Assembly: GCF_988242995.1 (NCBI RefSeq)
Contig: NZ_OZ547043.1
Strand: one strand, 5' to 3'
DNA length: 64,000 nt
Shown here: piece after piece, positions 38,010-43,398 of the stretch
Position numbering within the stretch: position 1 is the stretch's first letter
Layout of the letters: the number at the start of each line of letters is the position of its first letter
Notes under the pieces: model-generated
Told to the model about the DNA's origin: nothing
Databases searched by the model: none
Seen by the model: the letters and a program-made list of their open reading frames with translations, nothing else
Position numbers and translations under genes: made by a program

Positions 38010-38363
38010 ATGTCATTTCTGTTACCCATCCAACTGTTCAAAATTCTTGCCGATGAAACCCGTCTGGGCATCGTTTTACTGCTCAGCAAACTGGGAGAGT
38101 TATGCGTCTGCGATCTCTGCACTGCTCTCGACCAGTCGCAGCCCAAGATCTCCCGCCACCTGGCATTGCTGCGTGAATGCGGGCTATTGCTGGATCGCAA
38201 GCAAGGTAAGTGGGTTCATTACCGCTTATCGCCGCATATTCCAGCATGGGCGGCGAAAATTATTGATGAGGCCTGGCGATGTGAACAGGAAAAGGTTCAG
38301 GCAATTGTCCGCAAACTGGCTCGACAAAATTGTTCCGCAGACAGTAAGAACATTTGCAGTTAA
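38010..38363 (+). CDS. arsR: arsenite-responsive repressor ArsR
   Basis: 117 aa with metalloid-binding ELCVCDLC motif within the HTH region. Confidence 0.93.
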   Translation: MSFLLPIQLFKILADETRLGIVLLLSKLGELCVCDLCTALDQSQPKISRHLALLRECGLLLDRKQGKWVHYRLSPHIPAWAAKIIDEAWRCEQEKVQAIVRKLARQNCSADSKNICS

Positions 38364-38417
38364 AAAATTTATCTAAACACATATGTATTTGCACATGTGT
38401 TTTATCCGGGAGGCATT

Positions 38418-39707
38418 ATGTTACTGGCAGGCGCTATCTTTGTCCTGACCATCGTATTGGTTATCTGGCAGCCGAAAGGTTTAGGCATCGGCTGGAGTGC
38501 AACCCTCGGCGCAGTACTGGCGTTGGTTACGGGCGTGGTTCATCCGGGTGATATTCCGGTGGTGTGGAATATCGTCTGGAACGCGACGGCTGCGTTTATT
38601 GCCGTCATTATCATCAGCCTGCTGCTGGATGAGTCCGGCTTTTTTGAATGGGCGGCGCTGCACGTTTCACGCTGGGGCAATGGACGCGGTCGCTTGCTGT
38701 TTACCTGGATTGTCCTGCTCGGTGCCGCCGTTGCGGCCCTGTTTGCCAATGATGGCGCGGCGCTTATTTTAACGCCGATTGTCATCGCCATGCTGCTGGC
38801 TTTAGGGTTCAGTAAAGGCACTACGCTGGCGTTTGTTATGGCGGCCGGATTCATTGCCGATACCGCCAGCCTGCCGCTTATTGTCTCCAATCTGGTGAAT
38901 ATCGTTTCCGCAGATTTCTTTGGTCTTGGCTTTCGCGAATACGCATCGGTGATGGTGCCGGTGGATATCGCCGCAATTGTTGCCACGCTGGTGATGCTGC
39001 ATCTCTATTTTCGCAAAGATATTCCGCAGAACTACGATATGGCACTGCTGAAATCGCCCGCAGAAGCGATTAAAGATCCTGCTACGTTCAAAACTGGCTG
39101 GGTTGTTTTACTGTTTCTGCTGGTGGGATTTTTCGTCCTGGAACCGCTCGGCATTCCGGTAAGCGCCATTGCGGCAGTGGGCGCGCTGATATTATTTGCC
39201 GTCGCTAAACGCGGTCATGCAATTAATACGGGTAAAGTCCTGCGCGGTGCGCCCTGGCAGATTGTCATCTTCTCGCTCGGCATGTATCTGGTGGTTTATG
39301 GCCTGCGCAATGCCGGACTAACGGAATATCTTTCTGGCGTACTCAACGTGCTGGCGGAAAACGGCCTGTGGGCCGCGACGCTCGGCACCGGATTCCTCAC
39401 CGCCTTCCTCTCTTCTATTATGAACAATATGCCGACGGTACTGGTTGGCGCGTTGTCCATTGATGGCAGCACGGCATCTGGCGTTATCAAAGAAGCGATG
39501 GTTTATGCCAACGTGATTGGCTGCGATTTGGGGCCGAAAATTACCCCAATTGGTAGCCTGGCTACGCTACTCTGGCTGCACGTACTTTCGCAGAAGAATA
39601 TGACTATCAGCTGGGGATATTACTTCCGTACAGGGATTATCATGACCCTGCCTGTGCTGTTTGTGACGCTGGCTGCGCTGGCGCTACGCCTCTCTTTCAC
39701 TTTGTAA
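38418..39707 (+). CDS. arsB: arsenite/antimonite efflux pump ArsB (429 aa)
   Basis: Start at ATG 38418 preceded by GGGAGG; polytopic membrane protein. Confidence 0.92.
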
Positions 39708-39719
39708 TGAGATATTGAT

Positions 39720-40145
39720 ATGAGCAACATTACCATTTATCACAACCCGGCCTGCGGTACGTCGCGTAATACGCTGGAGATGATCCGCAACAGCGGTACA
39801 GAACCGACCATTATCTATTATCTGGAAACACCGCCAACGCGCGATGAGCTGGTCAAACTCATTGCCGATATGGGGATTTCCGTACGCGCGCTGCTGCGTA
39901 AAAACGTCGAGCCGTATGAGGAACTGGGCCTTGCAGAAGATAAATTTACTGACCATCAGTTAATCGACTTTATGCTTCAGCACCCGATTCTGATTAACCG
40001 CCCGATTGTGGTGACGCCGCTGGGAACTCGCCTGTGCCGCCCTTCAGAAGTGGTGCTGGAAATTCTGCCAGATGCGCAACAAGGCGCGTTCACCAAGGAA
40101 GATGGCGAGAAAGTGGTTGATGAGGCGGGTAATCGCCTGAAATAG
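39720..40145 (+). CDS. arsC: arsenate reductase ArsC (glutaredoxin-coupled)
   Basis: 141 aa starting MSNITIYHNPACGTSRNTL (catalytic Cys12 context). Confidence 0.93.
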   Translation: MSNITIYHNPACGTSRNTLEMIRNSGTEPTIIYYLETPPTRDELVKLIADMGISVRALLRKNVEPYEELGLAEDKFTDHQLIDFMLQHPILINRPIVVTPLGTRLCRPSEVVLEILPDAQQGAFTKEDGEKVVDEAGNRLK

Positions 40146-40147
40146 CT

Positions 40148-40175
40148 AAAGGGGGATATGCCCCCTTATTTGTTC
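40148..40175. terminator. hairpin terminator between convergent arsC and the ArsR-like gene
   Basis: aaggggg-atat-ccccctt followed by atttgttctt. Confidence 0.6.
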
Positions 40176-40486
40176 TTCGTGGCCCCTTCGCCATGTGTTT
40201 TGCTATTTACGCAGCACTCCTCGCGTAAGAATTCAATTATCGCTTCCAGCATTGCGTATTGCGAAACACACATCAGCGTTCGACTCTCACGGTTTTGTTT
40301 GACCAGCCCTACCGATACCAGTGCTGAAATATGGTGACTGAGTGTGGAGCCGGGTATCCCAAGCTGCTTTTGCAACTCACCGACCGGCAAACCTTGTTCC
40401 CCCGCTTTGACCAGGTGTTTGAATATGAACAAACGGGTCGGGTGACCTAGCTCTTTCAGCGCTTTAGCAACTTCTTCCAACTGCAT
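40166..40486 (-). CDS. ArsR/SmtB-family HTH regulator (second copy, atypical; C-terminal Cys pair)
   Basis: 106 aa; N-terminus ALKELGHPTRLFIFKHL typical of ArsR/SmtB; lacks the ELCVCDLC site but has EECC near the C-terminus. Confidence 0.75.
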   Translation of the reverse strand: MQLEEVAKALKELGHPTRLFIFKHLVKAGEQGLPVGELQKQLGIPGSTLSHHISALVSVGLVKQNRESRTLMCVSQYAMLEAIIEFLREECCVNSKTHGEGATKNK

Positions 40487-40508
40487 ATGACACCCCCTTT
40501 GTCTGGTT

Positions 40509-40569
40509 GATATTTCGATAATACCAGAAATATCTTGATCTGAATTTTATTTCGATTATTCTGGAAATA
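40509..40569. promoter_or_regulatory. two similar inverted repeats (GATATTTC-N10-GAAATATC and TATTTC-N10-GAAATA) in the divergent promoter; candidate operators
   Basis: Read directly at 40509-40534 and 40548-40569. Confidence 0.45.
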
Positions 40570-40593
40570 TAGATTTAATCAATGAGGTTGCGT

Positions 40594-41595
40594 ATGAATA
40601 GTTGGCTTGCGATGCTGCAAGATGCCGCAGAGATGTTTGTGTTTCTCGCCGTTGAGCTTTCTTTGCTGTTTATAGTGATTAGTGCCGGTGTGAGCCTGAT
40701 AAGACAAAAGGTGCCAGACCATAAAATCCAGCAGATGATGGGGGCCAGAAAAGGGAGAGGTTATCTCCTGGCTGCTCTGTTGGGAGCCGTTACCCCGTTC
40801 TGTAGTTGCTCGACAATCCCCATGTTACGTGGATTGTTATCAGCGAAAGCCGGGTTTGGTCCGACCCTCACTTTTTTATTTGTTTCACCGCTACTTAATC
40901 CCATTATCGTCGGGTTAATGTGGGTGACTTTTGGCTGGAAAGTTACCTTGTTGTACGCGATTATCGCCGCCGGCGTCTCCGTACTTGCCAGTATTATCCT
41001 GGATTCTCTGGGATTTGAACGTCATATCATTGCCAGTAAAAGCTCATCAGCAAATTGTTGTGCTCCAGCCAAAACTTCGCCAGGGACGACATATACGCCC
41101 ATAAAAGTGAGTTGCTGTAGTCCAGCGGCTAAAGTCATTGAGAAACCCGCAGTTAACTGTTGCAGTACCAAAGCAGTGGCAAGTATTAATCCCATAAAAT
41201 TAGCCATTAAAGATGCATTGCAGCAGTTTAAAGACGTACTGCCATATCTTGTGTTAGGGGTATTACTAGGCTCTTTTATTTATGGCTTTATCCCCTCACA
41301 GTGGATTGCCGCTCATGCAGGGGCAGATAATCCCTTCGCCATCCCGTTGAGCGCCGTTGTCGGTATTCCGCTGTATATCCGGGCAGAGGCGGTTATCCCT
41401 CTGGCATCAGTTCTGATGACGAAAGGCATGGGTCTGGGGGCATTAATGGCATTAATCATCGGCAGTGCCGGAGCAAGTCTGACGGAAGTGATATTACTTA
41501 AATCAATGTTCAGAATACCGATGATAGTTGCATTCCTGACGGTTATATTAGGTATGGCTATCTTGATGGGCTATTTGACTCAAATGCTATTTTAA
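40594..41595 (+). CDS. ArsP-like permease (putative organoarsenical/metalloid efflux permease) with TPFCSCS motif and Cys-rich loop
   Basis: Polytopic membrane protein; TPFCSCSTIP motif as I recall from ArsP; central soluble loop with three CC pairs; start at ATG 40594 (SD gagg) preferred over 40582. Confidence 0.65.
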   Translation: MNSWLAMLQDAAEMFVFLAVELSLLFIVISAGVSLIRQKVPDHKIQQMMGARKGRGYLLAALLGAVTPFCSCSTIPMLRGLLSAKAGFGPTLTFLFVSPLLNPIIVGLMWVTFGWKVTLLYAIIAAGVSVLASIILDSLGFERHIIASKSSSANCCAPAKTSPGTTYTPIKVSCCSPAAKVIEKPAVNCCSTKAVASINPIKLAIKDALQQFKDVLPYLVLGVLLGSFIYGFIPSQWIAAHAGADNPFAIPLSAVVGIPLYIRAEAVIPLASVLMTKGMGLGALMALIIGSAGASLTEVILLKSMFRIPMIVAFLTVILGMAILMGYLTQMLF

Positions 41596-42174: not shown

Positions 42175-43398
42175 ATGTCAATTGACTTTACCCCAGGTAT
42201 GATAAATACATATCACGGCGATATTTATAACCGCACAACAGATACCGACAATGTTAAAACACCAGACACACCGATGTGGCCTTGTGATAATCAGGAAGAA
42301 CAGCAACCCATTAATTTTTCATTGTCTGAAGAAGGATATAACGCTGAACAATTTGATTTAGCGCAACAACAACTCCAACAAATTAATGCGTGCCACACGA
42401 ACACTACATATACAAATGCAGACTACTCAAAAGTTGTGGCTCAACTTGTAAGTCTTATTACTAACATTGAAACGATAAGTTCGACACCACTTACGCAACA
42501 GACACAATCAATACTTAATCAGATTAATAACATTAGATACGAAAAAAACAAAAGTGCTGAATGTCGAATCATTGTTGTCGCTAATCCTAAACCCGACAAG
42601 GCAATCATAACTAAAATTAGCGTAGAAGAGGGAATACCAGTAAGATTCAGTGTCCAAACCATGTTTTCAGATACTAATTTTATTGCTGAACAACAGGCTG
42701 ACTTACCTACTAATATAAAAGATATTCAAAACCTGTATCAAAAAATGACGAAGTTATATATTGAGCACAGTGAAAATAAAAACAGGATGAAAGTCTTTGC
42801 CGGAACCAACTTTATTGATTTCAATATGACAGGACAGAACCTGTCCGGGTTCGTTCTAACCTTGTCAAGGTTTTATTTCGAAGATCTACTTAATATAAAT
42901 TTCACTGACGCAAATTTAGGTGACACTATTTTTTCACATAAAGAACACCCTACCCCAAAATTATATAAAGACGAACAATATCTTGACAAACAAATCGAAG
43001 GTTTATTTTCAACATTATTAACCATTAATGACAACTTTTTACGAGCAAAAGCGGAAATTGCTTCGACAATAATTAAATTCTTAGAGGCCAGGATAACCAA
43101 TATTTCATACAATGACATATTAAAATATCAGCAAGAATTCAAAAAACAATGTTATAAGCAAGTTAAAGCCTTTACGACACTCTCCCGATACAATAAAATT
43201 CAAACATGGGCAGAAATGTCTGAATATCAATTCGAAGTATTTCAATACGAGACGCTTAACCCAAAAAAAATGTCATACGCACCTTATTTAAAGAGATCGC
43301 TACCTGATGAAAAAACTATAAATTATGGGGTGGAAATAGAAACACCATCTGGCAAAAGAATTCGCTTATCAAATCATTACCAGAATATAATCCCATAA
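42175..43398 (+). CDS. yhiS: uncharacterized protein YhiS, apparently intact (407 aa)
   Basis: Position between the ars region and slp; AT-rich, Asn/Ile-rich soluble protein. Confidence 0.6.

Follow-up and report, generated by a model that had tools for sequence, protein, structure and literature searches.

We describe here a divergent gene pair in a segment of an Escherichia coli chromosome, consisting of arsR2, which encodes a predicted repressor, and a gene for a permease related to ArsP. The pair lies in a stretch of 64,000 nucleotides (contig NZ_OZ547043.1 of RefSeq assembly GCF_988242995.1; hereafter the window), where the gene order is gor, dinQ, arsR, arsB, arsC, the pair, a yhiS-like open reading frame (ORF), slp, dctR and chuS. 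Inspection of the letters alone (the sequence-only reading) had described a 106-residue regulator divergent from a permease, with a number of cysteine motifs in the two products, and both are in the ORF list as described with all of those motifs; RefSeq labels the first ‘ArsR/SmtB family transcription factor’ and the second just ‘permease’. The permease could begin at either of two ATG codons, at 40594 (the RefSeq start) or at 40582, the latter giving a 337-residue product (40582-41595, + strand); the former is the likelier start because it has a GAGG Shine-Dalgarno sequence 5 nt upstream whereas the latter has none, and the spacer between the genes is 107 or 95 bp accordingly. The features of the two genes suggest that they are probably a self-contained, autoregulated efflux module for trivalent arsenicals, the substrate of which is likely an arsenical and plausibly an organoarsenical.

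ArsR2 scores 61.6 bits against a cut-off of 55 with the NCBIfam model NF033788 (HTH_metalloreg), and it matches Pfam HTH_20 and HTH_5. The protein (...EFLREECCVNSKTHGEGATKNK) has cysteines only at positions 73, 91 and 92, and all three are invariant in 57 of 57 orthologues. Its best match in the Protein Data Bank (PDB) by phmmer is 6J05 (E 3e-10), the AfArsR repressor of Acidithiobacillus ferrooxidans, and it resembles both AfArsR and the SpArsR repressor of Shewanella putrefaciens 200 in its ArsR/SmtB fold and in having vicinal cysteines at the end of the C-terminal helix, Cys91-Cys92 being aligned with Cys95-Cys96 of AfArsR, which are equivalent to Cys101-Cys102 of SpArsR. Arsenite (As(III)) is bound in AfArsR by Cys95, Cys96 and Cys102, and SpArsR has only the CC pair and is selective for methylarsenite (MAs(III)) (PMC13236881, PMC11868830). 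There is no cysteine past Cys92 in E. coli ArsR2, the third AfArsR ligand Cys102 being absent just as it is in SpArsR (PMC13236881; PMC11868830), and the protein therefore fits the SpArsR two-cysteine pattern; it differs from AfArsR in its extra invariant Cys73.

The sequence-only reading had called the regulator atypical, lacking the classical ELCVCDLC site for As(III) and ending in REECCVNS as an alternative sensing site. The ELCVCDLC site is indeed missing from ArsR2 and present in the neighboring K-12-type ArsR (38010-38363), and ArsR2 was rejected as an R773/K-12-type ArsR for this reason. The alignment of the CC pair with the AfArsR ligands bears out the alternative site, the two-cysteine version of which has already been published as the SpArsR type, although 14 residues follow the pair so that CCVNS is not the terminus. 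The regulator is not atypical in the sense of being new; the class with C-terminal cysteines is already known. ArsR2 was also rejected as a BigR/SqrR persulfide sensor, with a BigR equivalog score of 38.2 bits against a cut-off of 155 and with no cysteines other than the three described; BigR and SqrR pair a cysteine of helix alpha2 with one in alpha5.

Each of the two 37-nt repeats between the genes holds an imperfect palindrome, ATTTCGAT(A/T)AT(A/T)C(C/T)(A/G)GAAAT, which is matched twice in the window with an expectation of zero, and both sites recur in plasmid, Citrobacter, Aeromonas and Acinetobacter copies of the pair. To place the pair among its relatives we scanned one genome per species, giving 80 loci that are mostly from marine gammaproteobacteria and have permeases that are about 50% identical. 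A regulator homologue (45-88% identical) was found inside the 16-kb region searched in 59 of the 80, with 56 called as ORFs within 5 kb, and these are mostly directly upstream and divergent with a median spacer of 130 bp. In 44 of the 80 loci the core TTTCGAT-N7-RGAAA occurs within 260 bp on the upstream side of the permease, compared with a background of 0.004 per 270 bp. By these sequence comparisons the repeated palindrome is a conserved putative operator, and the pair together with this operator is conserved across gammaproteobacteria. Site 2 may overlap the permease promoter, read by eye as TTGATC-16-TATTCT, a pair unlisted in the promoter scan.

Table 1. Positions of the gene pair and associated features in the window.
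Feature	Position	Strand	Basis or comment
Canonical arsR-arsB-arsC operon	38010..40145	+	Directly upstream of the pair; NCBIfam above cut-off for ArsR and ArsC; RefSeq annotation
G+C-rich hairpin AAGGGGGATATGCCCCCTT followed by T-run	40149..40167	.	Terminator-like site between convergent arsC and arsR2
arsR2, 106-aa ArsR/SmtB winged-helix repressor, AfArsR/SpArsR (C-terminal vicinal cysteine) class	40166..40486	-	ORF list; NCBIfam; Pfam; PDB 6J05
Cys91-Cys92 codons, proposed (organo)arsenical-binding vicinal pair	40211..40216	-	Aligned with AfArsR Cys95-Cys96 (LREECCVNSK vs LTENCCHGTR)
Cys73 codon, just before helix alpha5	40268..40270	-	Invariant; no cysteine at the aligned AfArsR position
Divergent promoter/operator region, 32% G+C	40487..40593	.	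Two 37-nt direct repeats; promoter-like hexamers on both strands
Operator-like site 1, ATTTCGATAATACCAGAAAT, imperfect palindrome	40512..40531	+	Repeat analysis
Operator-like site 2, ATTTCGATTATTCTGGAAAT	40549..40568	+	Repeat analysis
arsP-like permease gene, 333 aa	40594..41595	+	RefSeq start
TPFCSCSTIP motif, Cys70 and Cys72	40792..40821	+	Identical aligned decapeptide in C. jejuni ArsP (Cys65/Cys67); helix break in model
Central hydrophilic loop, aa 139-199, three vicinal Cys pairs	41008..41190	+	pLDDT 45-55
ANCCAPA pair	41056-41061	+	
VSCCSPA pair	41113-41118	+	
VNCCSTK pair	41158-41163	+	

The permease is a full-length member of Pfam ArsP_1 (PF03773; E 1.2e-51; its residues 13-334 cover positions 3-293 of the 294 in the model), and it is 35% identical over 326 residues (pairwise E 2e-66) to P0546, one of the Campylobacter jejuni proteins that NCBI names ‘organoarsenical efflux permease ArsP’, which is encoded in an operon of arsP, arsR and an arsC of the low-molecular-weight phosphatase (LMWP) type. 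The two proteins share their full-length PF03773 match, an arsR neighbor and an identical TPFCSCSTIP decapeptide, whose cysteines (Cys65 and Cys67 in C. jejuni) were reportedly found by Chen et al. in 2015 to be required for transport, and we propose that Cys70 and Cys72 form a substrate-binding thiol pair. Residues P68, F69, C70, S71, C72, S73 and T74 are invariant in an alignment of 40 diverse homologues, and among the 150 best representatives of 50% clusters nearly every full-length protein has TPFC(S/A)CS, down to 31% identity. The sequence-only reading had taken the motif as an ArsP signature, with which its presence in C. jejuni ArsP and the ArsP_1 match agree. It is borne by a very large subfamily that includes ArsP and is mostly without ars neighbors, and it indicates membership rather than substrate. 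All eight cysteines of the permease fall either in the CxC motif or in the three CC pairs of a central loop, which is no chance arrangement. The reported substrates for export by the C. jejuni protein are MAs(III) and trivalent roxarsone, and not As(III) (PMC6205960).

The relationship to the C. jejuni system has its limits. The window genes are divergent whereas arsP-arsR-arsC are co-transcribed, the partner regulator is of the C-terminal-CC type rather than one with an R773-type ELCVCDL site, and the identity between the permeases is too low for NCBI to name the window protein ArsP. On plasmid pSa27 AMRFinderPlus flagged the neighboring sil genes and did not flag the permease paralog. No NCBIfam ArsP model was matched by the permease in the NCBIfam scan, and the matches that it does have are sub-threshold, at 109 bits against a cut-off of 300 for SO_0444 Cu/Zn efflux and 86.6 against 325 for SaoE. 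With scores so far under the curated values, assignment of the permease to the SO_0444 or SaoE equivalogs was rejected. None of the ten motif-bearing relatives that were scanned reached either cut-off. Two further homologues were seen: in a 461-residue relative (P0243) the ArsP_1 domain is fused to an N-terminal segment that resembles ArsG, of the aromatic aminobenzylarsenical efflux permease family, with a score of 125 bits that falls short of the cut-off, a possible Rosetta-stone link to aromatic arsenicals, and the homologue in Campylobacter sp. TTU-622 (P0254) stands alone among housekeeping genes and is uninformative.

An AlphaFold2 model of the permease built from a 40-sequence alignment (mean predicted local distance difference test (pLDDT) score 87.6, predicted template modeling (pTM) score 0.84) consists of two repeats, in each of which a long and a short helix are accompanied by helices that are interrupted at conserved motifs, with TPFC at the break between helices 55-66 and 71-83. 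Neither a sequence search nor Foldseek gave a significant match to the PDB. The predicted fold nonetheless resembles those of ArsB and the DASS (SLC13/INDY) transporters, from which the permease differs in having no detectable sequence similarity and only 333 residues as against 430-540, and the family appears to adopt, in compact form, the ion-transporter-superfamily fold that ArsB also has. DASS transporters have polar SNT-type motifs at the hairpin tips where the permease has its cysteine motif.

The sequence-only reading had noted three vicinal cysteine pairs in a central soluble loop, and ANCCAPA, VSCCSPA and VNCCSTK are all present. Residues ~146-199 are disordered in the model. If helices 55-83 and 249-276 are re-entrant hairpins, as they are in that fold, a charge tally puts nearly all of the Lys and Arg residues on the same side as the loop, and we therefore infer that the loop is cytoplasmic. 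Loop length ranges from 45 to 124 residues across the close relatives from Escherichia, Salmonella, Aeromonas and Citrobacter, and the loop sequence diverges fast, yet two to four vicinal CC pairs are mostly kept, often plus CxxxC motifs. C. jejuni ArsP likewise has a central hydrophilic loop with a vicinal CC between its halves, although it is shorter and has one CC, aligned with the second of the three pairs in the window permease. Castillo and Saier distinguished two ArsP types, one of ~300 residues and the other of ~400 with a hydrophilic insert between TMS4 and TMS5 (PMC2963123), and vicinal cysteine pairs are described MAs(III) ligands in SpArsR and ArsI (PMC6514093, PMC13236881). It is plausible that the loop captures substrate.

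Transport direction is unreadable from sequence, and DASS, TRAP and CNT transporters, which have the same predicted fold, are importers, so that an uptake or exchange system, importing for example a thiol-bound nutrient, has to be considered. We regard this as highly improbable: an ArsR-type repressor that is released by a toxic ligand fits efflux and resistance, both C. jejuni ArsP and ArsB, whose fold is the same, move their substrates outward (PMC6205960), and the pair is found on resistance plasmids beside arsH and arsDA, as described below.

The model that we favor for the pair is one of arsenical efflux under ArsR2 control. An ArsR2 dimer would occupy the two operators and repress both its own gene and that of the permease. 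Binding of a thiophilic trivalent arsenical to Cys91-Cys92 at the C-terminal end of helix alpha5, perhaps with the participation of Cys73, would release the repressor, and the derepressed permease would bind the substrate through Cys70/Cys72 at the helix break and export it, with the disordered and probably cytoplasmic loop perhaps capturing substrate through its three cysteine pairs and handing it over to the transport site. Because the third C-terminal cysteine of AfArsR is missing from E. coli ArsR2, the inducer would most likely be an organoarsenical with two-coordinate binding, methylarsenite or reduced roxarsone for example, in line with what has been published on SpArsR. Inducible efflux of trivalent arsenicals is thus the most likely function, with organoarsenicals favored by the two-cysteine C-terminal site and the ArsP precedent.

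Several observations weigh against this interpretation. The main rival is a module for inorganic As(III) or Sb(III), in which the permease would be the membrane partner of ArsA or a backup for ArsB, and As(III) would be sensed by a three-thiolate site of Cys91/Cys92 together with Cys73 of the other subunit. An antiparallel alpha5 dimer interface is typical of the ArsR/SmtB fold, and Cys73 might approach Cys91/Cys92 of the other subunit across it; as an invariant residue it could serve as a third ligand and permit an As(III) response. About 40% of the orthologues (~23 of 57, mainly Vibrio) have an AfArsR-like CCxxxxC triad, so that some orthologues in other genera have regained the third C-terminal cysteine, and an As(III) response is conceivable because of these triads and the invariance of Cys73. 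The likeness of ArsR2 to SpArsR is a fit to the published SpArsR cysteine pattern and not a sequence alignment, and a search started from the Shewanella xiamenensis regulator brought up no hit labeled S. putrefaciens. The resemblance of the predicted permease fold to that of ArsB also favors the inorganic alternative. On the other hand, ArsR2 is without a Cys102 equivalent, a pattern that reportedly makes SpArsR unresponsive to As(III) (PMC13236881), and As(III) is reportedly not exported by C. jejuni ArsP (PMC6205960). With arsRBC next door another As(III) pump would be superfluous, and there is no arsA in the window.

Plasmid paralogs of the pair bear directly on this question. By tblastn the permease is found on 997 PLSDB plasmids, ~640 of them at 60-90% identity and mainly from Escherichia and Salmonella, and paralogs that are accompanied by arsH, arsD and arsA are 75-80% identical to the window permease. 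The pESI-like S. Infantis plasmid pN17S0041 has the order permease <> arsR-arsH-sigma-arsD-arsA, with ArsH scoring 401 bits against a cut-off of 292; among NCBIfam models the sigma factor comes closest to SigZ, with 140 bits where 169 are required, and a Vibrio counterpart passes (228 against 212). On another plasmid arsH is truncated by IS26. The plasmid version has the same divergent pair and the same two operators in the spacer as the window (PMC6449608), with a regulator of 107 rather than 106 residues and a longer loop (up to four CC pairs plus extra CxxxC motifs, as against three CC pairs), and the window copy differs from it in lacking arsH, sigZ, arsD and arsA and adjoining arsRBC instead. 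Published work already has a name for the plasmid version, and it is the chromosomal member that is uncharacterized. The plasmid arrangement arsP<>arsR-arsH-sigZ-arsD-arsA and the arsD-arsA-arsP order of Endozoicomonas, with no ArsB in the stretch examined and Acr3 not searched for, favor an inorganic substrate, and Castillo and Saier proposed that ArsA energizes ArsP, with apparent co-evolution of the two (PMC2963123). Taking both sides together, we regard the inorganic reading as possible, if unlikely.

Other features of these loci are of interest in their own right. A SigZ-family extracytoplasmic function (ECF) sigma factor gene lies beside the regulator in many Vibrio loci, and in 15 of the 80 related loci overall, as well as between arsH and arsD on the plasmid (L004:5217-5762; L039:6895-7494). 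The plasmid pair is often beside IS26, IS1, antibiotic-resistance genes or the sil cluster, and many of the sampled plasmid carriers are from poultry, swine or retail meat. A distant pair on the Acinetobacter portensis plasmid pJNE5-X3_NDM-1 (L006, 6563-8023) has a permease that is ~47% identical and the same operator motif, and lies near lnu(G) and sul2.

A weaker alternative is that the pair has no specific role in arsenic resistance and would use its thiols more generally to sense and export another soft metal (Hg, Cd, Cu or Zn) or a thiol-reactive electrophile or oxidant, with the adjacency to arsRBC being incidental. Canonical ars genes are present within 8 kb in only five of the 80 loci (L009, L020, L024, L080 and L081), and the other 75, mostly in marine gammaproteobacteria, have no ars gene in that interval; Acr3, ArsM and ArsI were left out of this search, and the linkage is perhaps slightly undercounted. 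An LMW-phosphatase-type ArsC was found near none of the 80. Against the favored model more generally, the identity to the characterized ArsP is only 35% and the RefSeq name is simply ‘permease’, annotations of Cu/Zn or other efflux are given to other members of PF03773, and YraQ, an E. coli paralog at 24% identity, has MCTCC aligned with TPFCSCS, so the CxC is family-wide. For the non-arsenic alternative, the models that come closest in NCBIfam are those of SO_0444 Cu/Zn efflux and SaoE, and on IncHI2 plasmids the pair is found beside the sil copper/silver cluster. In addition, BigR, YgaV and RexT are ArsR members with cysteine pairs that sense redox state or persulfide (PMC8960804).

Against a non-arsenic role, the SO_0444, SaoE and BigR scores are all far under their cut-offs, ArsR2 has no cysteine in helix alpha2 of the kind used by BigR and SqrR, its CC pair aligns with proven arsenic ligands of AfArsR, and the sole characterized protein with TPFCSCSTIP is an organoarsenical exporter. 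The linkage to ars genes has also arisen independently, in the Escherichia and Citrobacter chromosomes (following arsRBC in the window and arsRDABC in Citrobacter gillenii), on the enterobacterial plasmids, in two Pseudoalteromonas loci where arsH adjoins the permease locus, and in two Endozoicomonas loci with arsD-arsA. We therefore consider a role outside arsenic improbable. The description of the pair as a metalloid module finds support in the adjoining arsRBC or arsRDABC and in the plasmid paralogs with arsH, arsD and arsA, although gene context supports arsenic for the enterobacterial branch and not for the whole clade.

Among 5426 complete E. coli genomes, 2221 have the pair, with nucleotide identities of 90-100%; K-12 and LF82 lack it. 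As the sequence-only reading had it, K-12 has only yhiS after arsC, with 628 bp followed by a yhiS disrupted by IS5. A remnant of the 3’ end of the regulator, 62 nt long and 84% identical, lies between arsC and yhiS in both strains (window 40198-40259, K-12 L092:5315-5376 and LF82 L003:5197-5258), and LF82 also has a 30-nt permease remnant (window 41212-41241, L003:5282-5311); the site therefore held the pair ancestrally, and those lineages lost it by deletion. An origin of the pair by insertion or a mobile element was rejected, as there is no flanking insertion sequence or integrase and the remnants mean deletion. The G+C content of the pair, 47-49%, departs little from the window mean of 49%.

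The chromosomal copies fall into identity bands of 90-95%, 95-99% and at least 99%, and our impression, with no other locus compared, is that such banded divergence is unusual for an E. coli chromosomal locus. IS1 is inserted between the regulator and the permease in at least one strain (NZ_OZ546925.1). Of the flanking features, the hairpin between arsC and arsR2 is likely a bidirectional terminator for the two genes. The yhiS-like ORF (42175-43398) is intact in the window, with 407 residues and 34% G+C, and matched no NCBIfam family; it is split by IS5 in K-12 and annotated as frameshifted in the 100%-identical strain NY1601.

These observations can be drawn into a fuller scheme, which we regard as rather doubtful when taken as a whole. 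In it the hypervariable loop would be an ArsD-like cytosolic chaperone arm that takes up trivalent (organo)arsenicals and delivers them by thiol exchange to Cys70/Cys72 of a miniature elevator-type transporter, a previously undescribed intersubunit site of Cys73’ with Cys91/Cys92 would tune the selectivity for As(III) versus methylarsenite among the orthologues, and the copy in 41% of complete E. coli genomes would be a determinant of resistance to organoarsenicals, for example those derived from roxarsone, in commensal and pathogenic strains.

The pair does not overturn current understanding, and extends a known system to a well-studied organism. If it is functional, about two in five complete E. 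coli genomes have a second chromosomal arsenical determinant, and because K-12 lacks the pair, genetics based on K-12 would have missed it. The likely substrates would be highly toxic trivalent methyl and aromatic arsenicals, which microbes of the gut and soil produce and which derive from feed additives, roxarsone among them, and with such substrates and its carriage on plasmids the module could contribute to the co-selection of resistance plasmids. The pair also offers a compact system for asking how two- versus three-cysteine sites set the selectivity of ArsR proteins, and what role a disordered loop of vicinal cysteines may play in a small transporter of the ArsB fold, in a family without a solved structure.

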